Source of the DNA: a phage
Sequence record: PZ452607.1
DNA: 48,737 nucleotides
Strand: one strand, 5' to 3'
A program made the translations under genes and the position numbers. The first letter of the stretch is position 1. Each line of letters starts with the position of its first letter. Positions 5,293 through 48,174 of this stretch are shown piece by piece. The notes under the pieces are model-generated. The model saw only the letters and a list, made by a program, of their open reading frames with translations. It was not told where the DNA came from and made no database searches.

Positions 5293-5323
5293 GGACTATC
5301 CTTTTTTGGATAGTCCTTTTTTT
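5293..5323 (+). terminator. intrinsic terminator
   Basis: GGACTATCC / GGATAGTCC stem then T7. Confidence 0.6.
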
Positions 5324-5337
5324 ATGGAGAAATCATT

Positions 5338-6105
5338 ATGGCTTACGAAAATTTAATGTTGCGCCCGGCGTGTCCGGGAAATCTTTCTGATACTTCAACC
5401 TACAATATTGATGGCGCTTGCGTGGCTCAAGGTGACATTGAGTTCGGCTCAGCGGTTCAGGTTGTCGGCATCGTTGATGGTGTAAAAGTTGTTACGGCGC
5501 TTTCTGATGGTGGAACTCCTTACGGTATCGCTTTCCGTTCCCAATATGAACACCTGAGCGGTAAAATCCTCGACGGTGAAGTGTGCAACGTCGTTTCTCA
5601 CGGTCGCGTGTGGGCGCTTACTTCTCTTGATGAGGCTCCCAGCTTGTTCTCAAAGTTGCAGTTTGGATCTGGTGGGGTTGTTACTGGTGGATCTGGTTAC
5701 GCAGGATGGACCTTTGCTGGCGGCTTTGTTAAGCACGAAGATGGCTACATTATTGAGGTTCGGGTGAAACAAAATGCTTTCATCGTTCCACCGCCGCCGC
5801 CCCCTGTCGTTCTTGTTGAATCCGCTACAATCACCACTGACAAGGAAAGCCCTCAGCCAAACAACGTTACGATCCAGTGTGTAGCTAATGCTCTTCCGGC
5901 TAATGCAACTGATAAGACTGGCAAATGGTCAATCGACGCTACCAATATCGCCACTGTCAATCCGGACTCAGGTCTTGTAACTCCTGTTGGTGGAGAGGTA
6001 GTCGGTGATTTCAATATTACCTGGACGGCTAACGATGCCAGCAAGACGACGGCAACCATTGCTTATCGCGTAGAAGCAGTGCCAACGCCAGAGGTTGATG
6101 TATAA
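5338..6105 (+). CDS. capsid decoration-like protein with C-terminal Ig-like (Big_2-type) domain
   Basis: N-domain paralogous to 4800..5276; poly-proline linker PPPPPP; C-terminal Ig-like segment; followed by terminator. Confidence 0.5.
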   Translation: MAYENLMLRPACPGNLSDTSTYNIDGACVAQGDIEFGSAVQVVGIVDGVKVVTALSDGGTPYGIAFRSQYEHLSGKILDGEVCNVVSHGRVWALTSLDEAPSLFSKLQFGSGGVVTGGSGYAGWTFAGGFVKHEDGYIIEVRVKQNAFIVPPPPPPVVLVESATITTDKESPQPNNVTIQCVANALPANATDKTGKWSIDATNIATVNPDSGLVTPVGGEVVGDFNITWTANDASKTTATIAYRVEAVPTPEVDV

Positions 6106-6124
6106 CATAAAAACACTTTGACGC

Positions 6125-6144
6125 TTTAACAAAAAGTGCTATTA
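6125..6144 (-). promoter_or_regulatory. box copy, antisense orientation, late region
   Basis: Reverse complement reads AATAGCACTTTTTGTTAAAG; no convincing -10 at the usual spacing. Confidence 0.4.
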
Positions 6145-6150
6145 TTGAAG

Positions 6151-6175
6151 CCGTGAACATAATCACGGTTTTTTA
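6151..6175 (+). terminator. intrinsic terminator
   Basis: CCGTGA..TCACGG stem then T6. Confidence 0.6.
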
Positions 6176-6195
6176 TTAACTATGGAGAAGTAATC

Positions 6196-7155
6196 ATGAC
6201 TACTAAAAAATTTGATGAAGCAGATAAAAGCAATGTTGAAATGTATCTGATCCAGGCTGGCGTAAAACAGGATGCGGCCGCAACGATGGGTATCTGGACC
6301 GCTCAGGAACTACACCGCATCAAAAGCCAGTCCTATGAAGAAGACTACCCGGTCGGCTCAGCTTTACGCGTATTCCCGGTTACAACCGAGCTTTCTCCGA
6401 CCGACAAGACGTTTGAGTATATGACCTTTGATAAGGTTGGTACGGCTCAGATTATCGCAGACTACACCGACGATCTTCCGCTGGTTGATGCCCTGGGTAC
6501 TTCTGAATTTGGCAAGGTGTTCCGTCTTGGTAACGCGTACCTGATCTCAATCGACGAAATCAAAGCGGGTCAGGCAACTGGTCGCCCACTGTCAACCCGT
6601 AAGGCGAGTGCGTGCCAGTTGGCGCATGATCAGCTTGTTAACCGCCTGGTGTTCAAAGGTTCCGCGCCGCACAAGATTGTGTCCGTGTTCAACCATCCGA
6701 ATATCACCAAAATTACCTCTGGTAAGTGGATTGATGTATCTACTATGAAGCCGGAAACTGCGGAAGCTGAGCTAACTCAAGCGATCGAAACCATCGAGAC
6801 GATTACTCGTGGTCAGCACCGCGCAACCAACATCCTGATCCCGCCTTCCATGCGTAAGGTTTTGGCGATTCGTATGCCTGAGACAACCATGTCTTACCTG
6901 GACTATTTTAAGTCTCAGAACTCCGGTATCGAAATCGACTCTATCGCAGAGCTTGAGGATATTGACGGCGCAGGCACCAAAGGCGTACTGGTGTACGAAA
7001 AGAATCCGATGAACATGTCCATCGAGATCCCGGAAGCATTTAACATGCTGCCAGCACAACCGAAAGACTTGCACTTTAAAGTGCCTTGCACCTCTAAGTG
7101 TACTGGTCTTACAATTTATCGCCCGATGACTATTGTCTTAATCACTGGCGTGTAA
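6196..7155 (+). CDS. major capsid protein
   Basis: 319-aa ORF in head module bracketed by strong terminators; size and position fit major capsid subunit. Confidence 0.6.
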   Translation: MTTKKFDEADKSNVEMYLIQAGVKQDAAATMGIWTAQELHRIKSQSYEEDYPVGSALRVFPVTTELSPTDKTFEYMTFDKVGTAQIIADYTDDLPLVDALGTSEFGKVFRLGNAYLISIDEIKAGQATGRPLSTRKASACQLAHDQLVNRLVFKGSAPHKIVSVFNHPNITKITSGKWIDVSTMKPETAEAELTQAIETIETITRGQHRATNILIPPSMRKVLAIRMPETTMSYLDYFKSQNSGIEIDSIAELEDIDGAGTKGVLVYEKNPMNMSIEIPEAFNMLPAQPKDLHFKVPCTSKCTGLTIYRPMTIVLITGV

Positions 7156-7162
7156 TATTATA

Positions 7163-7190
7163 GGGGCTAACTTAGTTAGTCCCTTTTTTT
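7163..7190 (+). terminator. intrinsic terminator after major capsid gene
   Basis: GGGGCTAAC / GTTAGTCCC stem then T7. Confidence 0.6.
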
Positions 7191-7205
7191 ATTGGAGAAA
7201 TCAAA

Positions 7206-7493
7206 ATGGCTAAAGAAAAAACTGTTGTTATCGTAAACGTTGGTGTAGCTCTTCAGATGTTCCGTCTTGAAGATGGTTCATTTGCTAAAGTTCTTCCAGA
7301 TGAAGAGGTCACGCTTCCGGCGTCCGTTCTTGATTTACCTGGTCTGCGTTGCTTAATTGCTCGCGAAGAAATCGAAGTTAAAGACGACAGTGCAACCAAC
7401 CGCAAAATCCGCGCTGAAATGGCAAAGATCACGAAGCCAGATCCGTGGGATAAAATGAGCGTAAAAGAGCTTGAAGACGGCGGCGAATATTAA
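7206..7493 (+). CDS. hypothetical head-module protein
   Basis: 95-aa ORF with RBS GGAGAAA, flanked by terminators on both sides. Confidence 0.4.
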   Translation: MAKEKTVVIVNVGVALQMFRLEDGSFAKVLPDEEVTLPASVLDLPGLRCLIAREEIEVKDDSATNRKIRAEMAKITKPDPWDKMSVKELEDGGEY

Positions 7494-7498
7494 TCATC

Positions 7499-7524
7499 AA
7501 GGCGCTCATGTAGCGCCTTTTTTT
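7499..7524 (+). terminator. intrinsic terminator
   Basis: AAGGCGCT..AGCGCCTT stem then T7. Confidence 0.6.
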
Positions 7525-7537
7525 ATGGTGGTAAATT

Positions 7538-7948
7538 ATGAATCAAGAAACTTTAATTGCAGTTGTTGAGCAAATGCGAAAGCTGGTTCCGGCACTTCGT
7601 AAGGTTCCAGACGAAACGCTTTATGCGTGGGTAGAAATGGCTGAGCTTTTTGTATGCCAGAAGACCTTTAAAGACGCATACGTCAAAGCGCTCGCTCTTT
7701 ATGCATTGCACCTTGCTTTCCTTGACGGGGCGCTAAAAGGTGAAGATGAGGATCTGGAATCGTACTCACGACGAGTTACGTCATTCTCCCTGAGCGGTGA
7801 ATTTAGCCAGACTTTCGGAGAGGTTACAAAGAACCAGTCAGGAGACATGATGCTTTCGACGCCGTGGGGTAAGATGTTCGAACAGCTTAAAGCGCGACGC
7901 CGTGGTCGATTCGCATTAATGACAGGACTCCGTGGAGGATGCCACTAA
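7538..7948 (+). CDS. head-tail adaptor/connector protein
   Basis: Position after capsid genes; size typical of adaptor proteins. Confidence 0.4.
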   Translation: MNQETLIAVVEQMRKLVPALRKVPDETLYAWVEMAELFVCQKTFKDAYVKALALYALHLAFLDGALKGEDEDLESYSRRVTSFSLSGEFSQTFGEVTKNQSGDMMLSTPWGKMFEQLKARRRGRFALMTGLRGGCH

Positions 7949-8319
7949 TGAACTACTCACAGATTGAAAGGATGGCTCGCAAAGGTGTGGCTTTCTTCAC
8001 CGATCCGTCAAGACCTATGAACCTGATAAAGCAAGGTGAATACGGATATGATGAAAACGGATTCGAGATCCCACCGATGGAACAGGTTATTCCAATATCC
8101 GGCGCGACGCGAAGACCGAACGCGCGTGAGATTGACGGGGAAACCATCCGCGCCTCAGATATTTTGGGGATCTTCAATAATGATCATGAAATAAACGAAG
8201 GTGACTATATAGAGATTGATGGCATTCGTCATGTTGTCGTTGATGCTCGCCCGGTTCAGGCGTCACTGGAACCAGTTGCCTATCGTCCAGTATTGCGGAG
8301 GGTATCAGTCGGTGGCTAA
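7939..8319 (+). CDS. head closure / head-tail joining protein
   Basis: Overlapping start with previous gene; position in neck module. Confidence 0.4.
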   Translation: MPLMNYSQIERMARKGVAFFTDPSRPMNLIKQGEYGYDENGFEIPPMEQVIPISGATRRPNAREIDGETIRASDILGIFNNDHEINEGDYIEIDGIRHVVVDARPVQASLEPVAYRPVLRRVSVGG

Positions 8320-8755
8320 TTATCAGATTCGTAGATTTCAAGGCGAGATTGATGCGTGGATTAATGCCGCTGAAAGCACGTTAGAACATGCTATTGAGAT
8401 ATTCGTAAGGGATGTTCACGACGCTCTTGTTAGCCGCTCCCCTGTTGATACAGGTCGATTCAAGGGTAACTGGCAGATAACTTTTAACGAAATCCCTAAC
8501 CACGCATTAAACCGATACGATAAAACTGGCGGTGTCGTCAGGGGTGAGGAACAGGCAAAAACTTATGGCATGTTCAGCCGTGGCGGCGCGATAACATCCG
8601 TTCACTTTTCAAACATGTTGATTTATGCAAACGCTCTTGAGTACGGTCATTCACAGCAAGCACCGAGCGGCGTTGTCGGTCTTGTGGCGTTAAGGCTTAG
8701 ATCATATATGGCTGACGCAATCAAGCAGGCAAGGAGACAGCAAAATGCACTATGA
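8312..8755 (+). CDS. neck / tail completion protein (HK97 gp10-like)
   Basis: Motif RFKGNW and ..ALEYG.. remembered from HK97 gp10 family; probable GTG start at 8312 after GGAGG (track ORF extends to 8216); start uncertain. Confidence 0.4.
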   Translation: MANYQIRRFQGEIDAWINAAESTLEHAIEIFVRDVHDALVSRSPVDTGRFKGNWQITFNEIPNHALNRYDKTGGVVRGEEQAKTYGMFSRGGAITSVHFSNMLIYANALEYGHSQQAPSGVVGLVALRLRSYMADAIKQARRQQNAL

Positions 8756-9143
8756 GTTATCAGCGGCGGCGCGAGCCGCTTTTCTATCAAAGTACAGAGA
8801 CTTTCCTCACTACATGGAAAACAGAAATTTCACACCGCCGAAGGATGGCGGGATGTGGCTGAGGTTCAACTACATTGAAGGGGATACGCTTTATCTATCC
8901 ATTGACAGAAAGTGTAAATCTTACATCGCAATCGTTCAGATCGGCGTAGTGTTCCCTCCAGGCTCCGGCGTTGACGAAGCAAGATTGAAAGCAAAAGAGA
9001 TTGCTGATTTTTTCAAAGATGGTAAAATGCTTAACGTTGGTTATATTTTCGAGGGTGCAATCGTGCATCAAATTGTTAAACATGAAAGCGGGTGGATGAT
9101 TCCGGTTCGCTTTACAGTACGAGTAGACACAAAGGAGACTTAA
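8745..9143 (+). CDS. tail terminator-like protein
   Basis: ORF between neck protein and major tail protein. Confidence 0.35.
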   Translation: MHYELSAAARAAFLSKYRDFPHYMENRNFTPPKDGGMWLRFNYIEGDTLYLSIDRKCKSYIAIVQIGVVFPPGSGVDEARLKAKEIADFFKDGKMLNVGYIFEGAIVHQIVKHESGWMIPVRFTVRVDTKET

Positions 9144-9145
9144 TT

Positions 9146-9814
9146 ATGCACTTACCAAATGGCGCACAAATTTTCGTGGAAACCTCTCGCGGGGTAGAGG
9201 TTGAGGCAACCGCTATCACTAACGCAGAAAATCCTGTTGCTACAGTTGCATCTAAGGGTGACTTGGCAAAAGGTGATTACGTTATTGTAACTCAGTCAAC
9301 TTGGGCAAAGATGGTTAGTCGAGTGCTAATTGTTACTGACGCTCAGGAAACAAGTATCACTCTTGCTGGAATTGACACCTCCGATACTCTTGTTTTCCCG
9401 GCTGGCGGCACGATGAGCTTTGCAAAAATTACTGGCTGGACTGAGATCCCTTGCGTACAGGAGATTGGTCAGGACGGCGGCGAGCAGCAGTATTACACTT
9501 ATCAGTGTTTGTCCGACGATAAAGAGCAGCAGATCCCAACGTTTAAATCTGCGGTCTCGCTAACTTACACCTTCGCGCACGAATTTGATAACCCGATCTA
9601 CCCGATTCTGCGCAAGCTGGATTCGTCTGGTCAGGTAACAGCGGTTCGAATGTACGTTCCGAAAGCGAGCGAAATGCGCATGTGGGCTGGCATCTTGTCG
9701 TTTAACGATATCCCATCCACGCAGGTTAACGAAATGGAAACGGTGGAACTCGCCGTATCCCTGAAAGGTGACTTTACTTTCATCTCATCCACTCTGGCAT
9801 CGCCTGGTGCTTAA
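9146..9814 (+). CDS. major tail protein
   Basis: RBS AAGGAGAC before ATG 9146; directly upstream of chaperone/tape measure; followed by hairpin terminator. Confidence 0.55.
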   Translation: MHLPNGAQIFVETSRGVEVEATAITNAENPVATVASKGDLAKGDYVIVTQSTWAKMVSRVLIVTDAQETSITLAGIDTSDTLVFPAGGTMSFAKITGWTEIPCVQEIGQDGGEQQYYTYQCLSDDKEQQIPTFKSAVSLTYTFAHEFDNPIYPILRKLDSSGQVTAVRMYVPKASEMRMWAGILSFNDIPSTQVNEMETVELAVSLKGDFTFISSTLASPGA

Positions 9815-9826
9815 ATACCATCCACA

Positions 9827-9852
9827 GGGGGCTTGCACCCCCTTATTCATTT
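9827..9852 (+). terminator. probable intrinsic terminator after major tail protein
   Basis: GGGGG..CCCCC stem then T-rich tract. Confidence 0.4.
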
Positions 9853-9887
9853 CTGTAAAATCATCTTATCAACTTTATTCGATTAAC

Positions 9888-9907
9888 TTTTAACAAAAAG
9901 TGCTATC
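9888..9907 (-). promoter_or_regulatory. box copy, antisense orientation, late region
   Basis: Reverse complement reads ATAGCACTTTTTGTTAAAAG. Confidence 0.4.
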
Positions 9908-9927
9908 AACCAATCAGGAGAAACATC

Positions 9928-10245
9928 ATGGCTAAATTCAATTTCGTGTTGGGCCAGCTTCCAGACTTCAAACTTCCGGTGACGTTCACCATGCCAAACG
10001 GCGAGGATGCGACTATTATTTTTACAGTACGCCACCTTTCCAGTAAAGAAGTGCAAGATATGTATGCGAAGCAGGGCGAAATGAATGATAGCGATTTCAT
10101 CACTAAGATAGCATCAGGATGGAATCTGGAAGAAGAATTTAACGAAGAGAATACGCGTAAGCTGGTACAGTATTATCCTTCCGCAGCGTACAATCTGACG
10201 GCAACTTACATCAAGGCGCTCGCCGGACACCGCGCAAAAAACTAA
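9928..10245 (+). CDS. tail assembly chaperone (lambda G-like)
   Basis: Small ORF directly upstream of tape measure, ending at slippery heptamer A_AAA_AAC. Confidence 0.6.
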   Translation: MAKFNFVLGQLPDFKLPVTFTMPNGEDATIIFTVRHLSSKEVQDMYAKQGEMNDSDFITKIASGWNLEEEFNEENTRKLVQYYPSAAYNLTATYIKALAGHRAKN

Positions 10246-10562
10246 AAAGGGCGGTTTATCTGTTATATCAGAAACCGCCAACAGAAGAGCAATTAAGATC
10301 GGTTGGCCTCAGTCTTTCTGACTATGAAGACGAGGAACCGGAAACGATAATCGGCGATGCTGAAATGGTGAAGGCGTGGAATGTTTTTACGTCAATGCTC
10401 ACTCAGTGGAGAAGTTCAGGCGCTGGAGCTTATGGTCTTGACTATAATGTTTTGCCTATGTTGTTCAAAATCTATAAAATAGAAGATGAAGAACTGGCAT
10501 TGCAGGACGTTAGGATCATGGAAGCGAAAGCGCTTGAAATGATTGCTAAGCAAAACAACTAA
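9928..10562 (+). CDS. tail assembly chaperone frameshift fusion (lambda G-T-like), produced by -1 shift at 10236-10242
   Basis: -1 frame is open from 10236 through ORF 10365..10562 with no stop; conserved G/GT architecture of tailed phages. Confidence 0.55.
10236..10242 (+). other. -1 programmed frameshift slippery heptamer A_AAA_AAC with downstream stem-loop (10250..10279)
   Basis: Zero-frame codons GCA AAA AAC TAA; stem GGCGGTTT / AAACCGCC begins 7 nt downstream. Confidence 0.55.
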
Positions 10563-13832: not shown

Positions 13833-13848
13833 CGCCATATAACAAAAG

Positions 13849-13883
13849 CCCGCCTTGCGCGGGTTTTTTTGTAGCTGTAGAAT
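13849..13883 (+). promoter_or_regulatory. terminator hairpin with overlapping sigma70-like promoter (TTGCGC-17-TAGAAT)
   Basis: CCCGCCTTGCGCGGG then T7; -35 lies in hairpin loop; same cassette at 16028..16062. Confidence 0.5.
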
Positions 13884-16027: not shown

Positions 16028-16062
16028 CCCGCCTTGCGCGGGTTTTTTTTCGCCTGTATAAT
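16028..16062 (+). promoter_or_regulatory. terminator hairpin with overlapping sigma70-like promoter (TTGCGC-17-TATAAT)
   Basis: Identical hairpin CCCGCCTTGCGCGGG then T8 and TATAAT; upstream of J-like gene. Confidence 0.55.
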
Positions 16063-16073
16063 GAGTCCACCGA

Positions 16074-16097
16074 TAAATAGCACAAAAAGGTAAACAT
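16074..16097 (+). promoter_or_regulatory. degenerate box copy in leader of J-like gene
   Basis: ATAGCACAAAAAGGTAAAC; left half-site intact, right degenerate. Confidence 0.3.
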
Positions 16098-16098
16098 C

Positions 16099-19000
16099 AT
16101 GATTCAAAAAGTGATAAGCGGATCTAAAGGTGGGTCACAGAAGCCTCATAACCCAGTTGAGATGGAGGACAATCTAATCTCAATCAACAAAATCAAGATC
16201 CTGTTAGCTGTATCTGATGGTGAAATTGACGAAACATTCAGCCTGAAGCAGTTGATGTTTAACTCAGTCCCGGTGCAAAACGAGGATGGCTCATTTAACT
16301 TCGAGGGAGTAAAGGCAGAGTTCAGACCGGGGACGCAGACTCAGGAATATATCAAGGGAATGGAAGATAGCTCTAGTGAGGTAACTGTAAATCGTGAGGT
16401 TACTACCGATAACCCATACACAATCTCAGTAACCAACAAAACGCTGTCGGCAATCCGTATCAAAATGTTCATGCCTCGCGGCGTACGAATTGAAAGTAAC
16501 GGTGATAAAAATGGCGTAAGAGTTGAGTATGAGGTGCAACAAGCTGTTGATGGCGGCTCGTTTGAGACGGTGCTCACCGATGTAATCGAAGGCAAAACAA
16601 TGTCAGGTTACGATCGAAGCAGACGTGTAAACCTACCTAACTTCAACAATCAGGTGATATTCAGAGTGGTTCGGAAAACTCCAGACTCTAACGACTCGAA
16701 CGTTGTTGACGCGATTCAGGTAAAGAGCTATGCCGAGGTGATTGATGCCAAATTCCGTTATCCGCTGACTGGTCTTCTTTTTGTCGAGTTTGATTCGAAG
16801 ATGTTCCCAAACCAGTTACCTACGATCTCAATTCGTAAGCGCTGGAAGATTGTAAACGTTCCGTCAAACTATGATCCAGAATCACGAACTTATAACGGAA
16901 ATTGGGATGGAACTTTTAAGAAGGCATGGACGAATAATCCGGCCTGGGTGCTTTATGACCTGATGATTAATCAGCGTTATGGCTTGGATCAGAAAGAGCT
17001 TGGTATCGCTGTAGATAAATGGGCGCTCTACGAGGCTGCGCAATATTGCGATCAGATGGTTCCTGATGGGAAGGGCGGGACGGAACCTCGATACCTTTGC
17101 GACGTGATAATCCAGTCTCAGACTGACGCTTACAAGGTTATCCGAGATATTTGCTCAATCTTTCGTGGTATGAGCTTTTGGAATGGTGAGAGCATTTCGG
17201 TAATCATCGACAGGCCGCGTGAACCTGCGTACATCTTCACTAACGACAACGTTGTTAATGGTGACTTCTCCTACACGTTCGCAAGCGAAAAGAGCATGTA
17301 CACGACGTGTAATGTGATGTTTGATGATGAACAAAACATGTATCAGCAGGACGTTGAGCCAGTATTCGATCGTGAGGCTACTCTACGGTTTGGGAACAAC
17401 GTTACGAGCATTACAGCGATCGGTTGCACACGTCGAAGCGAGGCCAACCGACGCGGGAGATGGATTCTGAAAACTAACCTCCGCAGCACTACGGTAAACT
17501 TCGCTACCGGGCTTGAGGGCATGATCCCAACAATCGGAGATGTTGTGGCAATAGCTGATAACTTCTGGTCAAGTAACTTGACAATGAACCTGTCAGGGCG
17601 TTTGCTCGAAGTGTCTGGAAGTCAGATTTTCTTGCCGTTCCGGGTGGATGCACGCGCTGGTGACTTTATTATCGTAAATAAGCCAGATGGCAAGCCTGTG
17701 AAGCGCACAATCTCAAGTGTTAGTGCGGATGGTAAGACTATAGAGGTTAACATTGGCTTTGGCTTTCCTGTGAAGCCTAACACGGTATTCGCTATCGACC
17801 GCACCGACATTGCGTTACAGCAGTACGTCGTGACAAAAATCGATAAGGGCGATGATGATGAGGAATTTACCTACAAAATAACGGCGGTGGAGTACGATCC
17901 TAACAAGTATGATGAGATTGATTACGGAGTTAACATCGACGACCGACCGACGAGCATCGTTGAACCAGATCAGATCCCTAGACCGAAAAATGTGCAAGTA
18001 TCCTCAGAGTCGAGAATCGTCCAGGGGATGAGCGTAGAAACGATGATTGTTAGCTGGGATAAAGTTCCGTACGCTGTTTTCTATGACGTCCAGTGGCGAA
18101 AGGATAACGGTAACTGGCAAAATGTACCGCAGACAGCAAACAAAGAGGTATACGTTGAAGGTATTTACGCTGGCAACTATCAGGTTCGCGTTCGCTCAGT
18201 CGCTGGTTCGGGCACGACTTCAGGCTGGTCAAATATCGTCGCGGCAACGTTGACGGGTAAACAGGGTGAACCGGGCCGAACGATTAACCTCACAGCTACG
18301 GATGATGTTGTTTTTGGTATCCGTACAAAATGGGGGTTCTCTGATGGTTCTGGAGATACAGCCTATACAGAGTTGCAACAGTCACCGGATGGAACAGTGG
18401 ATAACGCAAGTTTGCTTTCTTTGATTCCGTATCCGCAGCATGAGTATTATCACTCACCAATGCCTGGAGGGAATATTGTTTGGTATCGGGTAAGGACGGT
18501 TGACAGGATCGGTAACGTGTCTCAGTGGACTGATTTTGTCAGAGGTATGGCATCAACAAACGTTGACGATATCATTGGGGAGATTTCTGTTGATATCGAA
18601 AACTCACCTGGTTACGAGTGGCTTGTTGATAACGCAACAGACAACGCGGCGCAGAACTCAGCTAACGCAGAGGCAGCAATAGAAAACGCGCTCGCCAATG
18701 ACAAAGACGCGATCTACATGAAGAAGGAGAACGGAAAACGAAAAGCTGAGTACACGAAATCACTGAAACTTATTGCTGATGAGACGCAGGCACGAGTGAC
18801 GGCGATCGAGCAATTGAAGGCAAGTTTTGGCGATCAGATTAGCGCTAGCAACAGCGAGCTGCGTGAGGTTATCGCAACCGAGACTGAAGCACTATCGCGT
18901 GAGATTGACCAGCTTAAGGCTCAGATTGGTGACGATATTCAGGCAAGTCTGACTGATATTCGGGAGGCTATCGCGAACGAGACTGAGGCTAGAACGCAAG

Positions 19001-19518
19001 CTGACTTAACACTTAGCGCGCGGCTTGGAAATAACGAGGCGGCACTTGCTCAAAAACTAGACTCGTGGAGTAACGCGGATTCTACTGGTGCAATGTACGG
19101 TGTCAAGTTGGGTCTGAAATACAACGGCCAGGAATACAGTGCAGGCATGGCTATGTCTCTAGTTGGTTCCGGAGCTGCGGTTAAGGCGCAGATTTTGTTT
19201 GAGGCGTCACGATTTGCCATCATGACTGGAATGAATGGTCAGACTCAGTACCCCTTCGTTGTTGAGAATGGTCAGGTTATTTTAAGTAGCGCGATTATCA
19301 AGAACGGATTCATCACCAACGCAATGATTGGAAACTTCATCCAGTCGAATAACTATGTATTTAACAAGTCCGGATGGAGGCTTGACAAGGGTGGAACATT
19401 CGAAAATTACGGAAGTGACGGTGAGGGTGCAATGAAGCAAACTAATACCACAATATCTGTTAGGGATGCGAGTGGTCGCCTGAGGGTTCAGATTGGCAGG
19501 TTGACTGGCTCATGGTAA
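16099..19518 (+). CDS. tail tip host-specificity protein (lambda J-like central fibre)
   Basis: 1139-aa ORF after K/I homologues with own promoter; coiled segment near C-terminus. Confidence 0.8.
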   Translation: MIQKVISGSKGGSQKPHNPVEMEDNLISINKIKILLAVSDGEIDETFSLKQLMFNSVPVQNEDGSFNFEGVKAEFRPGTQTQEYIKGMEDSSSEVTVNREVTTDNPYTISVTNKTLSAIRIKMFMPRGVRIESNGDKNGVRVEYEVQQAVDGGSFETVLTDVIEGKTMSGYDRSRRVNLPNFNNQVIFRVVRKTPDSNDSNVVDAIQVKSYAEVIDAKFRYPLTGLLFVEFDSKMFPNQLPTISIRKRWKIVNVPSNYDPESRTYNGNWDGTFKKAWTNNPAWVLYDLMINQRYGLDQKELGIAVDKWALYEAAQYCDQMVPDGKGGTEPRYLCDVIIQSQTDAYKVIRDICSIFRGMSFWNGESISVIIDRPREPAYIFTNDNVVNGDFSYTFASEKSMYTTCNVMFDDEQNMYQQDVEPVFDREATLRFGNNVTSITAIGCTRRSEANRRGRWILKTNLRSTTVNFATGLEGMIPTIGDVVAIADNFWSSNLTMNLSGRLLEVSGSQIFLPFRVDARAGDFIIVNKPDGKPVKRTISSVSADGKTIEVNIGFGFPVKPNTVFAIDRTDIALQQYVVTKIDKGDDDEEFTYKITAVEYDPNKYDEIDYGVNIDDRPTSIVEPDQIPRPKNVQVSSESRIVQGMSVETMIVSWDKVPYAVFYDVQWRKDNGNWQNVPQTANKEVYVEGIYAGNYQVRVRSVAGSGTTSGWSNIVAATLTGKQGEPGRTINLTATDDVVFGIRTKWGFSDGSGDTAYTELQQSPDGTVDNASLLSLIPYPQHEYYHSPMPGGNIVWYRVRTVDRIGNVSQWTDFVRGMASTNVDDIIGEISVDIENSPGYEWLVDNATDNAAQNSANAEAAIENALANDKDAIYMKKENGKRKAEYTKSLKLIADETQARVTAIEQLKASFGDQISASNSELREVIATETEALSREIDQLKAQIGDDIQASLTDIREAIANETEARTQADLTLSARLGNNEAALAQKLDSWSNADSTGAMYGVKLGLKYNGQEYSAGMAMSLVGSGAAVKAQILFEASRFAIMTGMNGQTQYPFVVENGQVILSSAIIKNGFITNAMIGNFIQSNNYVFNKSGWRLDKGGTFENYGSDGEGAMKQTNTTISVRDASGRLRVQIGRLTGSW

Positions 19519-26874: not shown

Positions 26875-26935
26875 TTCCAGATCTCCAAAATAAAAAACGC
26901 GTAGAAGGATGTTAACCCGCTACGCGTCGTTTGTT

Positions 26936-27388
26936 TTAACTAAAAATGCTATTGGTCGTTCCGATATCTTCCCTCTTCACGACGCGCATAAATTTCTTGT
27001 TCTTGCATCGCTTCTCAAGGCACTTGCCGTTACCGTCAAACTTCAGGTCGAATCGCAACCATGCGGCCCTAAACCCTTTGCACCCCTGTCGGCGGTAAGC
27101 ACGATGCGCAGCTTCAGCGCCTTGCCATGAAATCATATTGCGTTCTTTCCAGCCTTGCACCGTCTGATTGCTAACCTTCAGAGCCTTTGCGCAGGCCGCC
27201 GGGCCGCCGTAATATTCGATAAGGGCATCAAGTCGCGCTCGCAGTCCGGCGCGCGTTTCTTCTTTATGAATATAGAACCCGCAACGCTGGCGAGGCTTTT
27301 TATCTTTACCGCGCCGTGTTCCGTTGTTACCATTGATGTGACGTTTATCGATTTCACCAGTTGACTCTGCGATACGTTGAATACTCAT
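26936..27388 (-). CDS. putative HTH DNA-binding protein
   Basis: Segment GGPAACAKALKVSNQTVQGWK resembles an HTH; basic protein; divergent from helicase gene. Confidence 0.4.
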   Translation of the reverse strand: MSIQRIAESTGEIDKRHINGNNGTRRGKDKKPRQRCGFYIHKEETRAGLRARLDALIEYYGGPAACAKALKVSNQTVQGWKERNMISWQGAEAAHRAYRRQGCKGFRAAWLRFDLKFDGNGKCLEKRCKNKKFMRVVKREDIGTTNSIFS

Positions 27389-27400: not shown

Positions 27401-27444
27401 ATAGCACTTTTTGCTAAAAACGTTTACTTTATGCCGTGTATTAT
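27401..27444 (+). promoter_or_regulatory. box + hairpin + -10 element upstream of helicase
   Basis: ATAGCACTTTTTGCTAAAAAC, 22-nt spacer, TATTAT; inverted repeat AACGTTTAC/GTAAACGTT around -10. Confidence 0.5.
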
Positions 27445-27487
27445 AGCGTAAACGTTACAACGATTCAAAGGATTAATAGCCGTGACA

Positions 27488-31218: not shown

Positions 31219-31468
31219 GCGCGAAGTGTGGGAGCACGCAAAGGAATGCGGCATCTCAGACGATATAGCATTAATTGCTAAATACTTTGATATAAAGGAT
31301 GTTAGCATTATATCAAACGGCAAGATTTCATTTATGGAAGGTATGCCGAGAAAAATGCAAAGAGTTCCAGCCACTCCATCACTTGAGTTTTACCGCGAAG
31401 AGGGAAAGAGAATTGAGCGAGAAAGAAAATCCACAAAAAACGGCAAGTCTTCCAGGCTTAAATATTAA
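31196..31468 (+). CDS. hypothetical protein
   Basis: ORF overlapping end of previous gene. Confidence 0.3.
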   Translation: MLIKKQGKREVWEHAKECGISDDIALIAKYFDIKDVSIISNGKISFMEGMPRKMQRVPATPSLEFYREEGKRIERERKSTKNGKSSRLKY

Positions 31469-32912: not shown

Positions 32913-32956
32913 ATAGCACCTTTTGTTAAAACAGTACCCGCGAAAGCGGGTATTAT
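32913..32956 (+). promoter_or_regulatory. box + hairpin + -10 element upstream of HNH gene
   Basis: ATAGCACCTTTTGTTAAAAC, 22 nt, TATTAT; hairpin ACCCGC gaaa GCGGGT. Confidence 0.5.
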
Positions 32957-32984
32957 TGTTTTATAGAAACAAGAGGAGATTGCA

Positions 32985-41246: not shown

Positions 41247-41286
41247 CACTTTTTGTTAAAACCGGATCGGGGTATCTTGCTATAGT
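41243..41286 (+). promoter_or_regulatory. box + hairpin + extended -10 element
   Basis: AATAGCACTTTTTGTTAAAAC, 22 nt, TGcTATAGT; stem GGGGTA/TACCCC. Confidence 0.55.
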
Positions 41287-41324
41287 TACCCCATCAAAAC
41301 GAGATACCAATCAGAGGAATCACC

Positions 41325-42065: not shown

Positions 42066-42105
42066 CACTTTTTGTTAAAACTCAACTCCGGGGTTGCGAT
42101 ATAGT
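42061..42105 (+). promoter_or_regulatory. box + hairpin + -10 element
   Basis: AATAGCACTTTTTGTTAAAAC, 22 nt, TATAGT; stem GGGGTT/AACCCC. Confidence 0.55.
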
Positions 42106-42136
42106 AACCCCATCGACAACGAACGAGGACGCAAAC

Positions 42137-42625: not shown

Positions 42626-42666
42626 GCACGAATTGTTAAAAGGGGATTTGGCCTGACTGGTATAAT
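42621..42666 (+). promoter_or_regulatory. box + hairpin + extended -10 element
   Basis: AAGCACGAATTGTTAAAAG, 22 nt, TGgTATAAT; stem GGGGATT/AATCCCC. Confidence 0.55.
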
Positions 42667-42696
42667 CCCCACATCAACCACTAATAGGAAAGCATC

Positions 42697-42894
42697 ATGT
42701 TAAAATTAAAAGATATTCAGTTCCCTGTAGTATTTAACACTATTAGCTGCGGTAAAATAACCTGCCACAGCAAAGATCGCGCAACAGATTCATCATTCAA
42801 TGAGTGCCACCCGTCTATTGTTGGTAATCTTATTGAGCTTCATAACAATCACAATCCTGATAACATCCCATCTCTTCCATATTATGTTGAGTGA
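42697..42894 (+). CDS. hypothetical protein
   Basis: Cys/His-containing 65-aa ORF downstream of box/-10 element with TATAAT. Confidence 0.4.
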   Translation: MLKLKDIQFPVVFNTISCGKITCHSKDRATDSSFNECHPSIVGNLIELHNNHNPDNIPSLPYYVE

Positions 42895-42984
42895 GTCGGG
42901 CCTGGTTGGAAGGTTGGTCGCTCCATCTTCCATGCAGCAAAGCCAGAAATCAAGCCAGCGCTACAATGCACTCAGATCGAGAAC

Positions 42985-43182
42985 ATGCCATTGAGCGCGA
43001 CACTAAAAGGTGTCCAACTTGATAGCGAATCCTGGATCGAGATTACCGCCACGCCTAAAACTATTGAGGTACATGATGATGTGGTGATTCTCCTGTTGCA
43101 TTACGGCAGCTTTAAGCACAAGACGGTATCAGGTGAAATCAGCATTAAGCGCGGAACTCTTGTCCGCTACGAGGTGAAATAA
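42985..43182 (+). CDS. hypothetical protein
   Basis: ORF with weak RBS. Confidence 0.3.
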   Translation: MPLSATLKGVQLDSESWIEITATPKTIEVHDDVVILLLHYGSFKHKTVSGEISIKRGTLVRYEVK

Positions 43183-43331
43183 TGACTGCATGGGTCTTGA
43201 TTATCTTGATGAGCAAAGGTCCGGATCACGTATACATGGAAAGTCAACAATCATGCAACAAGGCACGGGAAGTTATCGCAGAGAACAAGCCGTTCGGATA
43301 TGAAGTAAAAACTATGTGCGTTAAACGATAG
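43182..43331 (+). CDS. small hypothetical protein (49 aa)
   Basis: ATGA coupling with previous gene; N-terminal hydrophobic stretch; stop TAG inside box. Confidence 0.3.
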   Translation: MTAWVLIILMSKGPDHVYMESQQSCNKAREVIAENKPFGYEVKTMCVKR

Positions 43332-43371
43332 CACGAATTGCTAAACCTTCCGCAAGGCCATTTGATATAGT
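43327..43371 (+). promoter_or_regulatory. box + hairpin + extended -10 element
   Basis: GATAGCACGAATTGCTAAAC, 22 nt, TGaTATAGT; stem GGCCA/TGGCC. Confidence 0.55.
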
Positions 43372-43411
43372 GGCCTTATTGAAGCACGACAACCAACTGG
43401 AGGTAAAATTT

Positions 43412-43786
43412 ATGAAATTCGAATGTATCAGCGATAACACCAAAAAATTTACTGTTGGCAAAATTTACGATGTTCCGACTGAGCACACAGAGCAAACCGT
43501 AGCTCTGACCGACGACACGGGCCGCAACCGAATTGCAACCGTAACTCACAACGGTGAAGGTCTTCGCTGGAATAGCGGCGGCACTAAGTTCGCAACGTTC
43601 GACAAGAAGCGCAAGCGCACCTTCCGCGTCAACGGCAATGTTGCAGCTAACAAGATCCATAACGTCAAGCCGTCGGAAGTTGACCGCAAGCCAGCGCTGA
43701 AGTTTAAAGAGAAGGTGGATTTATTCAATCTTGCCGCCTCGCTTGTTCTCCTGGTCGCTGCTATTTCGCTGCTTTCCATCATGTAA
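43412..43786 (+). CDS. hypothetical C-tail-anchored membrane protein
   Basis: RBS GGAGG; soluble basic domain then one C-terminal TMD; followed by terminator. Confidence 0.45.
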   Translation: MKFECISDNTKKFTVGKIYDVPTEHTEQTVALTDDTGRNRIATVTHNGEGLRWNSGGTKFATFDKKRKRTFRVNGNVAANKIHNVKPSEVDRKPALKFKEKVDLFNLAASLVLLVAAISLLSIM

Positions 43787-43793
43787 TGCTAAT

Positions 43794-43828
43794 GGGGAAT
43801 CGACTCTGAACGGTTCCCCTTTCTTTTG
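43794..43828 (+). terminator. intrinsic terminator
   Basis: GGGGAA..TTCCCC stem then T-rich tract. Confidence 0.5.
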
Positions 43829-43934
43829 GAGAAAACACTATGCCAGACTTTTCTAACTGGAATAACGAGCCGCCATCATTTCAGGAGTTGCTATTCTGCC
43901 TCCTGGTCCTGACATTATCTCTTAAGGGTGTTTT

Positions 43935-44153
43935 ATGGCTACTATCATGACAGTAGAAGATGCAGCACGCGATGCAGTGGAAGGAATGCGCCCAAATACC
44001 TCCAGAATAGCACACTACTACAAATCTGAGGTGTCGGTAGTGCAATTGGTCCACGAAATTTTAAGGCTCCCACAAGTCGATTCAGCGCGCGTTGTGACGT
44101 GCTTAAAAAATTATTTTTGCATCACTATTAAAACGAATAGCACGAATTGCTAA
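43935..44153 (+). CDS. hypothetical protein
   Basis: 72-aa ORF; 3' end reads through box copy; overlaps a possible 36-aa hydrophobic ORF at 43840..43950. Confidence 0.3.
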   Translation: MATIMTVEDAARDAVEGMRPNTSRIAHYYKSEVSVVQLVHEILRLPQVDSARVVTCLKNYFCITIKTNSTNC

Positions 44154-44180
44154 AACCTATCAAGGGGAATACGCTATGAT
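44136..44180 (+). promoter_or_regulatory. box + hairpin + -10 element
   Basis: AATAGCACGAATTGCTAAAAC, 22 nt, TATGAT; stem GGGGAAT/ATTCCCC. Confidence 0.55.
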
Positions 44181-44210
44181 TCCCCTACACCAACAAACGA
44201 GGAAGCGATC

Positions 44211-44657
44211 ATGAAACACTTAATCTGCATTGAAGCGCCTAACGATCAATACACCCTGCATGGACTTGGTGTGTTCAAAGGTCACTACATTACCGCAGGA
44301 ACTTACGATGCTCGTCGCGGCGATGGCGACCTAATGATTACGTCAAAAGAAGTAAATCCGTACATCATGCAGAATCTTGGCAATAACGAATATATGGCCT
44401 ATGGCTGCAACGCGGTGTACAAGCACGTTAAGATCCGCAAGCGTGTTGTGCGTGCATTCAAGAAGATTGCAATTAAATACTGGAAAATGAGCAAGAAAGA
44501 TGCCGGACGTTGGGCGCGCAACGTTGCAGATTCATACTTCTATCGTAACGGCGAATCCTGCTACTTCCTGATCGATGAACTTATGGAAAACTACGGTGGC
44601 GACTTCAGCCAGGGTAGCTTTGATGACTGGGCCAACTATGAGATCAGTTGCTGGTAA
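44211..44657 (+). CDS. hypothetical protein
   Basis: RBS GAGGAAG; box/hairpin/-10 element upstream. Confidence 0.45.
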   Translation: MKHLICIEAPNDQYTLHGLGVFKGHYITAGTYDARRGDGDLMITSKEVNPYIMQNLGNNEYMAYGCNAVYKHVKIRKRVVRAFKKIAIKYWKMSKKDAGRWARNVADSYFYRNGESCYFLIDELMENYGGDFSQGSFDDWANYEISCW

Positions 44658-44700
44658 TAGCACGAATTGCTAAAACTTGCTCAAGGGCATTTGTTAGAAT
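44656..44700 (+). promoter_or_regulatory. box + hairpin + extended -10 element
   Basis: AATAGCACGAATTGCTAAAAC, 22 nt, TGtTAGAAT; stem AAGGGCATT/AATGCCCTT. Confidence 0.55.
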
Positions 44701-44740
44701 GCCCTTCGTTGAGTTAAGCAACCAATCAGAGGAATAAATC

Positions 44741-45271
44741 ATGGATAAAATCACAATTTGGGGCCAGACAATCAACCTGTTTCTCGGCACGCGCCGAGTG
44801 GCAATCTTTGACTTTGACGGGACACTTAGCGATGGATCTGGTCGACTTCACCTGCTGCCAACAAAGGATTTGCACTTGACTGAAAGCTGGTCTGAGTTTA
44901 ACCGAGCGGCAATATTTGATAACCCAATCCAGAGCACGATCGATGTGATGAACTCTATGTTTGCCGCTGGGTATCATGTGATCATTTTAACCGGGCGAAG
45001 TGATGAGGTGCGTTACGCATCTGAGTTATGGCTTAAGCATCACGGCGCTCGATATGATTACTTAGTCATGCGACCGCATACCGACAACCGCAAAGACACG
45101 GTAATGAAAGAAGAGGCAGTGCGCGCTATCGGCATTGATAACATTCTTGCGGCTTGGGATGACTCAGTGAATATAATAAAAAAATTCAGAGATCTAGGGA
45201 TAACCACATATCAGGTTTGTGAATATGCCTGTGATAGTCGAGAGGATTTAAATAGTCATGGTGTCGATTGA
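44741..45271 (+). CDS. HAD-superfamily phosphatase
   Basis: Motif I FDFDGT, motif II ILTGR, motif IV WDDS. Confidence 0.6.
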   Translation: MDKITIWGQTINLFLGTRRVAIFDFDGTLSDGSGRLHLLPTKDLHLTESWSEFNRAAIFDNPIQSTIDVMNSMFAAGYHVIILTGRSDEVRYASELWLKHHGARYDYLVMRPHTDNRKDTVMKEEAVRAIGIDNILAAWDDSVNIIKKFRDLGITTYQVCEYACDSREDLNSHGVD

Positions 45272-45752
45272 TAACAAATCAATGGTAAGAGAGTTATTTA
45301 CTTATTCTGACGGCGTTCTGTATTGGAAGGCCAAATCATCTAAATACAGTAGAACTAAAATAGGAGGCGCGGCAGGAAGCAAGGATAAAGACGGATACAT
45401 AATAATCAGAGTAAGAAACGAAACTAGAGGCGCTCACAGGCTTGTATGGATATACCATAATGGCAAGATACCTGATGGAATGGAGGTAGACCATATGGAT
45501 GGAGACATAACAAACAATAGAATAGAAAACCTAAGATTGGTAACGAGAACCATAAATAACAGGAATCAAAAAAAGAGATCTGATAACACAACCGGAGTAT
45601 CCGGTGTAACTTTCATGAAAGATAGAGGAAAGTATAGGGCGCAAGTTAGAAACAAGAGACTCGGGCAGTTCGACACAATAGAAGAGGCCGCCAAAGCAGT
45701 AAAGGATGAGCGGGATAGATTAGGTTTATTCACAAAAAGACACGGGGTGTAA
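45258..45752 (+). CDS. HNH homing endonuclease
   Basis: HNH core (DHMDGDITNNRIENLRLV) plus AP2-like tail; lies between phosphatase and kinase genes. Confidence 0.75.
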   Translation: MVSIDNKSMVRELFTYSDGVLYWKAKSSKYSRTKIGGAAGSKDKDGYIIIRVRNETRGAHRLVWIYHNGKIPDGMEVDHMDGDITNNRIENLRLVTRTINNRNQKKRSDNTTGVSGVTFMKDRGKYRAQVRNKRLGQFDTIEEAAKAVKDERDRLGLFTKRHGV

Positions 45753-45754
45753 AC

Positions 45755-46327
45755 ATGAAAACAGCTATCATTTTAAACGGCGCACCTGGTGCGGGAAAGG
45801 ACACTATCGGATGCATCCTGGCTGACACTTACGATCATGTAGCGCTACGCAGCTTCAAAGCGCCAATGTTTGAGATTGCCCGAGCAATCCTGGGTGAGAC
45901 TAATTTCGAGTATTTCATGTTCTTGTATGAGGACCGTCGCTATAAAGAAGAGCCAGCGTCAATCCTGAACGGTAAAAGCCCGCGCCAGTTTATGATCTGG
46001 ATTAGCGAGGAGGTCATCAAGCCGCAGTTCGGAAATCGCTTCTTCGGTATGCGAGCGGAAAGTAAGGTGAAAGAGTCGCATTCACTTTCGGTATTTACTG
46101 ACGGTGGATTCAAAGACGAGATCTTGCAGATGATTGAAGGTGACATCCAGGTCAAGCTGTGTCGAATCCATCGCAACGGTTGCAACTTTGACAACGACAG
46201 TCGCGACTATATCTATCTTGACGATATGATCGGGGTCAACGGTTATCAGGAGTGTGACTTCTTTTCTGTCGAAGGCCATCCAGAAATTACCGCTCAGCAC
46301 ATAGCCGCCACGTTCATCAATAAATAG
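45755..46327 (+). CDS. P-loop nucleotide/polynucleotide kinase
   Basis: Walker A GAPGAGKDT at N-terminus; size fits dNMP kinase or Pnk kinase domain. Confidence 0.55.
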   Translation: MKTAIILNGAPGAGKDTIGCILADTYDHVALRSFKAPMFEIARAILGETNFEYFMFLYEDRRYKEEPASILNGKSPRQFMIWISEEVIKPQFGNRFFGMRAESKVKESHSLSVFTDGGFKDEILQMIEGDIQVKLCRIHRNGCNFDNDSRDYIYLDDMIGVNGYQECDFFSVEGHPEITAQHIAATFINK

Positions 46328-46367
46328 CACGAATTGCTAAAACGTCGGTGTGGTGATTTGATATAGT
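46323..46367 (+). promoter_or_regulatory. box + extended -10 element
   Basis: AATAGCACGAATTGCTAAAAC, 22 nt, TGaTATAGT; TAG of box is the kinase stop codon. Confidence 0.55.
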
Positions 46368-48156: not shown

Positions 48157-48174
48157 AGCACTAAATGTTAAACA
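48156..48174 (+). promoter_or_regulatory. degenerate box copy in leader of terminase small subunit gene
   Basis: ATAGCACTAAATGTTAAAC directly after the extended -10. Confidence 0.35.

Follow-up and report, generated by a model that had tools for sequence, protein, structure and literature searches.

Box copies in the late operon

The window analysed, a single stretch of 48,737 nt, is coliphage T1. Its plus strand carries TTTAACAAAAAGTGCTAT without mismatch at 6125-6142 (copy 1) and 9889-9906 (copy 2), both of them reversed copies of a box that reads ATAGCACTTTTTGTTAAA on the minus strand, where each is an exact match. Both are intergenic, with the Ig-domain decoration gene before copy 1 and the major capsid gene after it, and with the major tail gene before copy 2 and the tape-measure chaperone gene after it. 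A terminator adjoins each of them, in the form of a hairpin 4 nt past copy 1 (6147-6176) and another about 45 nt upstream of copy 2 (9826-9843). These observations agree with a first-pass annotation of the sequence, which had placed antisense-oriented 20-mers at 6125-6144 and 9888-9907, each including the 18-mer exactly, in intergenic spaces beside terminators. Box copies with up to three mismatches numbered 13 in the window, compared with 0.07 expected. Copies 1 and 2 are the only independent ones that oppose their flanking genes; a reversed match at 31264 is the opposite-strand reading of a near-palindromic forward site at 31268.

As a repeat, the box is already known. The 21-nt direct repeats of phage TLS (aaATAGCACnnnTTGnTAAAA) are the same element, and one of them, DR7, which runs on the opposite strand and immediately precedes terminator T35, is the counterpart of T1 copy 1. 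In their 2024 paper, the TLS authors described the repeats as running with transcription and left their function open (stoperator, enhancer or UP element); the marbox is not mentioned there, and the reversed copy is not discussed. A report of a marbox identity of the T1-type box, or of a role of its reversed copies, was not found in the literature. Binding, footprint or transcript-start data for any Drexlerviridae phage were likewise absent from the searchable literature.

Marbox consensus and geometry of the forward copies

The box sequence GCACTTTTTGTTAAA fits the published E. coli marbox consensus, GCAHWWWWTGYYAAA (PMC6900184), at 15 of 15 positions, as do both reversed copies; the 20-bp marbox equivalent of copy 1 is 6123-6142. 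When up to one mismatch was allowed, the consensus was matched 22 times in the window (11 perfect and 11 one-mismatch sites) against an expectation of 1.4, and 19 of the 22 matches were co-directional with their genes. Variation among the T1 and TLS boxes falls on the degenerate positions of the marbox consensus. The box is asymmetric, in that its 5' flank does not mirror its 3' flank.

A -10 element follows the AAA of the box at exactly 20 nt in 14 of the 19 forward copies and at 19 or 21 nt in 3 more. About 19 forward copies overlap the -35 position; the forward box is centred at about -41.5 and ends 20 nt from the -10, and class II marboxes are forward-oriented sites centred at -36 to -55 (PMC12052159). 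Here and throughout, start sites were predicted from the positions of the -10 elements. The E. coli K-12 micF promoter (GCAC..AAA, 20 nt, TAGAAT) has the same spacing as the T1 forward boxes, and the register of the box agrees within 1 nt of numbering with the Rob contacts in the Rob-micF transcription complex (PMC9178005). Class II promoters of the mar/sox/rob regulon, such as micF, thus resemble those of T1 in the 15-nt consensus, the forward orientation, the overlap with the -35 position, the 20 nt from AAA to the -10 and the lack of a canonical -35 hexamer. Host marboxes are degenerate, whereas the T1 sites, whose binder is predicted, mostly show the perfect consensus and belong to about 20 promoters within 48.7 kb of a virulent phage. 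We interpret the box as a marbox, an asymmetric site for one monomer of a predicted MarA/SoxS/Rob-type activator, and the forward copies as putative class II activator-dependent sigma-70 promoters of T1 early and middle genes. Both proposals form part of one explanation, including the mechanism outlined below, to which we give, taken as a whole, somewhat better than even chances.

Three other kinds of element were considered and rejected. Sigma-54 promoters have GG and GC elements 10 nt apart (TGGCAC-N5-TTGC); the T1 box, TAGCAC-N3-TTGC, is 2 nt too short and is followed by a sigma-70-type -10. The MotA box of T4 middle promoters has its centre near -30 and is separated by 11-13 nt from the -10; for the T1 box, the values are about -41.5 and 20 nt. 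Mycobacteriophage L5 stoperators resemble the T1 boxes in their many asymmetric copies and their orientation bias relative to transcription; however, stoperators are located within transcribed regions and act independently of a -10, most T1 boxes precede a -10 by a constant distance as promoter parts, and an L5-type phage repressor was not identified in T1.

Promoters at the reversed copies and related sites

Copy 1 is embedded in a forward promoter that precedes the major capsid gene (P_MCP) and is listed among the promoters of T1 record AY216660 (15062..15089). Its -35 hexamer TTGACG (6118-6123, plus strand) was the top match of the promoter scan, and its extended -10 TGcTATTAT (6137-6145, plus strand) gives it the architecture TTGACG-16-TGcTATTAT. 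The box covers about -27 to -10 of this promoter, fills 15 of the 16 spacer positions and includes the TGCTAT of the extended -10. The spacer of a promoter usually drifts without constraint on its sequence; here, the box persists between phages that share only 57% capsid protein identity, and of 61 related loci inspected at this site, 59 have a reversed copy. Among the 42 distinct sequences, the TTG of the -35 and the TGC of the extended -10 are invariant, while TAnnnT is kept in 39 and shifted by 1 nt in the other three.

Immediately downstream, 2 nt past the -10 of P_MCP, begins the hairpin with T-run at 6147-6176 (plus strand), annotated as a terminator in AY216660. In 32 of 36 distinct sequences the hairpin arm begins 1-3 nt past the -10. 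Folding gave a 10-bp stem in read-through RNA, as against a 4-bp stem in RNA starting at 6153. P_MCP is predicted to start at about 6152-6153, within the 5' arm of the hairpin, so that its transcripts would escape the terminator that halts read-through from upstream. As a counterpoint, a start at G6150 instead of about 6153 would leave the full terminator in the promoter's own transcript.

Repression through marboxes is known, among other cases, from rob, purA and hdeA. Marbox repression sites occur in either orientation with their centre between -35 and +25 of the promoter, and at pbpG a marbox in the promoter spacer mediates repression by MarA and SoxS (PMC12052159). The centre of copy 1 lies at about -18.5 of the predicted TTGACG-16-TATTAT promoter and its predicted start, which fits a repressing position. 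As at the published sites, a marbox would cover the promoter spacer or core and a factor that activates elsewhere would repress; copy 1 differs from them in also supplying the TG and the first half of the -10, and in belonging to a promoter nested in a terminator.

Copy 2 is present in 30 related loci (27 distinct sequences). An intrinsic terminator found by a terminator scan follows the major tail gene (9826-9850, plus strand), and its loop holds the -35 of a forward promoter, TTGCAC-17-TAAAAT (9833-9861, plus strand), with a predicted start at about 9868. TAnAAT is kept in 27 of the 27 distinct sequences and TTGC at 17 nt in 26; the same type of design recurs at 13848-13880 and 16034-16062. 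Copy 2 occupies about +22 to +39 of this promoter and abuts the ribosome-binding site of the tape-measure chaperone gene. On the minus strand, an extended -10, TGaTAAGAT (9871-9863), lies exactly 20 nt past the end of the box and marks a predicted box-dependent antisense promoter. All 27 distinct sequences retain its T, A and final T, over nine hexamer variants, and 24 of them have TG in register; the spacers between box and -10 comprise 19 distinct sequences that are 53% identical, and all are 20 nt long. With respect to this strand and its predicted start, copy 2 has the geometry of a class II marbox. The antisense transcript is predicted to start at about 9856 and to read into the complement of the terminator and the 3' end of the major tail gene.

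The -10 elements of the antisense and forward promoters are 1 bp apart; their melting regions overlap, and transcription proceeds from them in divergent directions. Overlapping divergent (bidirectional) sigma-70 promoters were reportedly described by Warman et al. in 2021, and copy 2 resembles them in its adjacent opposite-strand -10 elements and divergent starts. It differs in that the starts are only about 12 bp apart, by prediction, and that one arm would depend on an activator site and run antisense to a structural gene. Neither reversed copy has class II geometry with respect to the late genes on either side, their centres lying at about -18.5 and +30 of the forward promoters. The latter value also places copy 2 just beyond the -35 to +25 range of repression sites with respect to TTGCAC-17-TAAAAT, and any effect on this promoter would be exerted through promoter competition or a roadblock.

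The first-pass annotation had found no recognisable -10 for these copies on either strand. This holds for the minus strand of copy 1, which offers only a poor, non-conserved TATACA; a final T in this hexamer occurs in just 2 of the 42 distinct sequences. It fails for the minus strand of copy 2, given TGaTAAGAT, and for the plus strand of copy 1, where the last three bases of the box begin the -10 of TGcTATTAT and the -35 lies 16 nt upstream. Antisense transcripts initiating at the canonical distance, named there as evidence against its proposal, are what the sequence of copy 2 predicts. Its view that the box is a protein-binding site and not simply part of a promoter gains support from the conservation of a reversed box inside the spacer of P_MCP.

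Two further late-operon boxes, missed in that annotation, likewise occupy non-activating positions. Before the small terminase gene, a forward box (48155-48172) overlaps the -10 of a promoter with the extended -10 TGgTAAAAT (48148-48156; whole element 48148-48172, plus strand) and spans about -8 to +10; the arrangement of TGnTAAAAT followed by a box, with n varying, is kept in relatives L078 and L079. Before the tail fibre gene, a forward box with two mismatches (16077-16094) lies at about +9 to +26 of a terminator-embedded promoter, TTGCGC-17-TATAAT (16034-16062; whole element 16034-16094, plus strand), and the TLS repeat DR8 has the matching position after terminator T49. The layout of copy 2 has an internal paralogue in the pir/helicase module (27401-27468), which includes an annotated promoter. 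Here, a box (27401-27418) is placed to drive the helicase promoter (TATTAT, 27439-27444). Transcripts of an opposing pir promoter, TTGAAT-17-TATAAT (27468-27440, minus strand), would cross this box in its reversed sense before they reach the pir start codon; repression of this promoter in reporter assays (PMC6737242) lends support to the role proposed for copy 2. The two promoters have a common -10 with a 1-nt offset and starts about 18 bp apart.

Mode of regulation and candidate binding factors

TLS has no RNA polymerase or sigma factor of its own according to its authors, a statement that we extend to T1. The most likely explanation is that one marbox-binding factor activates early and middle promoters and restrains late ones, with the reversed copies as the same site put to the latter use. 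Bound at about -27 to -10 of the strong, conserved capsid promoter, within its spacer and the first half of its -10, the factor would exclude RNA polymerase; since this promoter is predicted to start within the terminator hairpin, only its own transcripts would reach the capsid gene. Copy 2 is placed such that it could recruit polymerase to the antisense promoter, facing the forward promoter of the tape-measure chaperone and tape-measure genes. The two promoters could not open together, and antisense activation would therefore shut the forward one, while the bound factor would also obstruct the path of forward transcripts. The reversed copies weigh most in this argument, as they suggest that one site serves both activation and restraint of transcription. 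They are not indispensable, because copy 1 is degenerate in phage Sushi and copy 2 is missing from Sushi as well as from TLS-like and Klebsiella phages, all with the forward promoters retained.

Host Rob/MarA/SoxS are the best candidates for the factor, with the phage proteins Orf65 and Pir as chief rival. The host proteins are favoured because T1 lacks a MarA homologue: by tblastn, the best E value for MarA among the matches listed was 0.44; a MarA/SoxS/Rob profile run against all T1 ORFs gave one weak match only, in an unannotated antisense ORF; and Pfam scans of 20 T1 proteins revealed no AraC-type domain. Against them count the scarcity of MarA and SoxS in unstressed cells, the mostly inactive state of the abundant Rob and the fast growth of T1 in ordinary broth. 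A published study (PMC6737242) used T1 promoters with boxes in reporter assays in E. coli free of phage, from which it can be argued, activity values aside, that host factors suffice. Data in the same study implicate phage proteins instead: Orf65 activated its own box promoter in phage-free E. coli and repressed the pir promoter, which Pir repressed as well, and Pir activated the box-containing dam promoter.

The same architecture could therefore be served by Orf65 (44211-44657) and/or Pir (26936-27388), the likeness to a marbox being convergence or mimicry; we regard this as a serious possibility, albeit a clearly less probable one. The promoter activated by Orf65 consists of a box (core 44140-44154), 20 nt and TATGAT, the promoter that it represses reads through a reversed box, and members of its family occur in three box-carrying phages, T1, TLS (gp18) and Sushi (gp68). 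However, Orf65 matches nothing in Pfam, the targets of Pir include the recE promoter, which lacks a box, and the holin promoter, which has only the half-box ATAGCAT, and a Cro-like dimer leaves a strictly asymmetric, orientation-dependent site unexplained. The 15/15 consensus match and the micF spacing are also hard to ascribe to chance. With the host factors as binder, T1-like phages might time their development by host stress regulators, perfect class II marboxes capturing Rob/MarA/SoxS for early and middle genes and four late promoters (small terminase, capsid, tape-measure chaperone and tail fibre) being held off until replicated DNA, with about 20 predicted high-affinity sites per genome, titrates the factor. 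We offer this extension only tentatively. If it were true, oxidative stress, antibiotics and bile salts would all bear on phage development. Should the marbox interpretation itself hold, the regulators of multidrug resistance would be needed by a common family of virulent phages of enterobacteria, among them Klebsiella phages under consideration for therapy, and antibiotic or bile stress could alter phage growth. The marbox interpretation makes the early-late switch open to direct experiments with existing reagents.

The remaining alternatives question the promoters or the function of the sites. The proposal of the first-pass annotation, pure binding sites for repression or roadblock with a promoter at canonical distance on neither strand, appears unlikely. 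A protein at either copy would indeed meet forward transcription, copy 1 has no conserved minus-strand -10, and the boxes at 48155 and 16077 also lack a -10 at canonical distance; repression fits copy 1. Yet at copy 2, all 27 distinct sequences have TAnnnT at a constant 20 nt despite the diverging spacer, and copy 1 supplies half of a conserved plus-strand -10. It is more improbable still that RNA polymerase reads the box directly, as an upstream or -35-like element across a 22-nt gap, the reversed copies being weak antisense promoters or accidents. TTGTTA or TTGCTA is present within the box and the TLS authors raised the UP-element idea, but a spacer of 22 nt exceeds the range of sigma-70, an invariant GCAC is atypical of UP elements, and the conservation of a reversed box within a promoter spacer is left unexplained. 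The other suggestion made initially, that the copies are relics, fared worst, and we attach very little probability to it or to conserved linkers marking recombination junctions between gene modules, although the homology of relatives ends immediately upstream of the conserved block with copy 1. Both reversed copies are probably functional, because their position and promoter elements are conserved among relatives: over a range of 57-100% capsid identity, place, orientation and alignment with the -35, -10 and hairpin are preserved down to the single base, a degree of conservation that a junction role does not need.

Box copies and their match to the marbox

The window is a permuted T1 genome with the large terminase gene first, and its positions 5300-10300 are 100% identical to coliphage T1 (AY216660, NC_005833). 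Coordinates of the T1 record were obtained by adding 8944 as far as the tail fibre gene and 9043 beyond it, because the tail fibre gene (16099-19518) is 99 nt shorter in the window, with 33 codons fewer than in AY216660; the window therefore comprises 48,737 rather than 48,836 bases. The late structural operon comprises the genes within 1-20558 on the + strand.

The sequence TTTAACAAAAAGTGCTAT was found without mismatch at 6125-6142 (copy 1, before the major capsid gene) and at 9889-9906 (copy 2, before the tape-measure chaperone gene). In total, the window holds 13 copies of the box with up to three mismatches (0.07 expected), and the other eleven read ATAGCACTTTTTGTTAAA toward the downstream gene. 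The first-pass annotation had described two reversed copies lying between genes next to terminators; the exact matches, which oppose the late genes, confirm the orientation, and the intergenic placement next to terminators was likewise upheld for both.

The box is already known from the relative TLS, in which a 21-nt repeat (aaATAGCACnnnTTGnTAAAA) was reported at 21 places; the authors left its function open and noted its presence in T1, Rtp and Rogue1 as well (PMC11447400). The box agrees at 15 of 15 positions with the E. coli marbox consensus (5'-GCAHWWWWTGYYAAA-3'; PMC6900184), the binding site of MarA, SoxS and Rob, and the positions that vary among T1 and TLS boxes are the degenerate positions of this consensus. 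Matches to the consensus with at most one mismatch numbered 22 in the window (1.4 expected; 11 perfect). No link between the T1-like phage repeat and the marbox was found in a literature search that did not cover the 2004 T1 genome paper, and a search for transcript starts in the T1-like phage family returned none.

The box is an asymmetric site, and 19 marbox matches are co-directional with their genes. A TAnnnT-type -10 lies exactly 20 nt past the final AAA in 14 of these 19, and 19 or 21 nt past it in three more; the co-directional boxes come without a canonical -35. Readings of the box as a sigma-54 site, MotA box, UP element or palindromic operator were ruled out by spacing and asymmetry. 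The co-directional boxes have the geometry of a class II marbox promoter, in which the site is forward, overlaps the -35 and is centred at -36 to -55 (PMC12052159). The E. coli K-12 micF promoter is built alike: 20 nt separate GCACTGAATGTCAAA from TAGAAT, and the annotated micF 5' end lies 8 nt beyond that hexamer. The register of the box also matches the contacts reported for the Rob-micF transcription complex (G-47 and A-45, G-38 and T-37, A-35 and A-34; PMC9178005), with a numbering difference of no more than 1 nt. Klebsiella phage Sushi (Webervirus) carries 15 such sites with equal spacing, all co-directional.

Predicted promoters at the two reversed copies

Copy 1 lies inside a + strand sigma-70 promoter before the capsid gene, consisting of the -35 TTGACG (6118-6123), a 16-nt spacer and the extended -10 TGcTATTAT (6137-6145); this promoter was the top match of a promoter scan, and the re-annotated T1 record lists it as well. 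For comparison, 63 related loci around capsid-gene homologues (protein identity 57-100%) were collected, and of the 61 inspected at this position, 59 carried a reversed box. Among 42 distinct sequences, the + strand TTG at -35 and the TGC extension are invariant (42/42 each), and TAnnnT occupies the -10 in 39, being displaced by 1 nt in the remaining three. The - strand hexamer 20 nt from copy 1 (TATACA in T1) ends in T in only 2/42, so that copy 1 is without a conserved antisense promoter. These comparisons place copy 1 as a conserved overlay on the predicted forward promoter, at about -27 to -10. Known marbox repression sites may face either way and fall between -35 and +25, and at pbpG, where the marbox lies within the promoter spacer, transcription is repressed by MarA and SoxS (PMC12052159). 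Sushi has kept TTGACG-16-TGaTATTCT at this locus whereas its box has decayed, which points to the promoter as the backbone and the box as added control.

A terminator hairpin starts 1-3 nt past the capsid promoter -10 in 32 of 36 distinct sequences. On folding, RNA from upstream formed a 10-bp stem with a U-run, of which 4 bp were left when the start was set at 6153; upstream read-through would thus stop, and capsid-promoter transcripts would reach the capsid gene. Homology among the relatives (L003-L064) stops sharply at cATAACAcAAAAA, which precedes the capsid promoter -35 by about 20 nt and lies just before the conserved block with copy 1. The decoration genes upstream of this block are unrelated between phage groups, which makes this site a mosaic junction at the regulatory block.

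At copy 2, an extended -10 (TGaTAAGAT, 9871-9863) follows the box by 20 nt on the - strand. In 30 related loci (27 distinct), this distance is always 20 nt, with 19 distinct spacers of 53% mean identity; the - strand hexamer is TAnnnT in 27/27 distinct sequences, in nine variants, and the TG extension is in register in 24/27, a pattern that bears the signature of a selected, if predicted, -10. The + strand carries a -10 TAnAAT in 27/27 (TAAAAT, 9856-9861, in T1) and TTGC at -35, 17 nt upstream, in 26/27; the T1 forward promoter, TTGCAC-17-TAAAAT, has its -35 (9833-9838) inside the major-tail terminator loop. The two -10 hexamers are 1 bp apart and the predicted starts, at about 9868 (+) and 9856 (-), yield diverging transcripts; the two open complexes would overlap, making their coexistence impossible. 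Sushi keeps the forward promoter at this locus and has no box, and TLS-like and Klebsiella-type relatives lack copy 2. Folding of the 5' leader containing copy 2 gave no notable structure.

Sequence and comparison together mark both copies as real, reversed and functional, and their deep conservation speaks against the suggestion that they are relics. Neither had been credited with a -10 on either strand, which is incorrect given TGcTATTAT on the + strand at copy 1 and TGaTAAGAT on the - strand at copy 2. The proposed role as a protein-binding site for repression fits copy 1. The sequence of copy 2 predicts an antisense promoter, the result that the first-pass annotation had named as refuting.

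Boxes and promoters elsewhere in T1

The pir/helicase region is a paralogue within T1, with the layout seen at copy 2, for which reporter results have been published. The helicase promoter (+ strand; box 27401-27418, TATTAT 27439-27444), which drives the helicase gene, is opposed by the pir promoter (- strand; TTGAAT-17-TATAAT, 27468-27440), from which transcription crosses the reversed box on its way to pir. Both use one common -10 region (TATTAT and TATAAT) in opposite directions with a 1-nt offset. In reporter assays in phage-free E. coli (PMC6737242), the pir promoter was repressed by Orf65 and by Pir, Orf65 activated its own promoter, and Pir activated the box-containing dam promoter. The orf65 promoter is laid out as in class II, with the box core at 44140-44154 and TATGAT 20 nt after it.

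Two further boxes belong to the late operon. The forward box before the small terminase gene (48155-48172, + strand) overlaps an extended -10, TGgTAAAAT (48148-48156), lying at about -8 to +10, and diverged relatives retain TGnTAAAAT with the box after it. A degenerate forward box before the tail fibre gene (16077-16094, + strand), the counterpart of TLS DR8, covers about +9 to +26 relative to TTGCGC-17-TATAAT. Both are over or downstream of a promoter -10, with no -10 at the activating distance, so that all four late-operon boxes occupy non-activating positions. Most likely, a single marbox-binding factor would activate early and middle promoters and restrain late ones, a mechanism proposed from sequence geometry, deep conservation, marbox rules in the literature and a single published set of reporter assays. 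Such a factor would repress the capsid promoter and, at copy 2, shift transcription from the forward to the antisense promoter.

The terminator-embedded promoter design of the copy 2 locus recurs at 13848-13880 and 16034-16062. Three such sigma-70 promoters (9826-9861, 13848-13880 and 16028-16062) place the -35 (TTGCAC or TTGCGC) in the loop or the 3' arm of the hairpin and use the T-run as 17-nt spacer and cTGTAnAAT as -10, and the late operon restarts directly after each terminator. Inverted repeats, some annotated as terminators, span or abut the -10 after most co-directional boxes (26935-26990, 27419-27460, 32931-32960, 41261-41290 and 42080-42110), so that terminator-promoter overlap seems general in T1. 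Rfam returned no known RNA families at copy 1 or copy 2; elsewhere, weak SraG matches on the - strand across two terminators of the late operon (7159-7272, 28 bits; 7496-7582, 23 bits) fell below the gathering score of 50 and are probably due to chance.

Candidate binding factors

No MarA/SoxS/Rob homologue was detected in T1 by tblastn with approximate query sequences, by a profile of three such sequences against all six-frame ORFs, or in Pfam scans of 20 T1 proteins, which leaves the host factors MarA, SoxS and Rob, suggested by the sequence match, as the simplest candidates. The main rival is binding by a phage protein, Orf65 or Pir. The Orf65 family occurs in T1, TLS and Sushi; the Orf65 model, which improved from pLDDT 48 to pLDDT 90 with a deeper alignment, comprises a beta domain followed by four helices, and fold searches with it found no DNA-binding fold and no AraC fold. 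Pir was ruled out as sole box binder because it also regulates two promoters that lack a full box, that of recE, with none, and that of holin, with a half-box only. The annotated HTH-like proteins gp70 and gp73 gave no PDB sequence match, are not paralogues and were set aside.

At 31264-31282, the marbox consensus can be read from either strand with an offset of 4 nt (GCATTAATTGCTAAA on the + and GCAATTAATGCTATA on the - strand), forming an almost palindromic site. The GCACGAATTGCTAAA subtype of the box occurs five times, always in the left-arm early region (42626-46341), and the GCACTTTTTGYTAAA subtype, to which both reversed copies belong, predominates outside it. The same grouping was seen in TLS, and the subtypes may represent timing classes or different binders.
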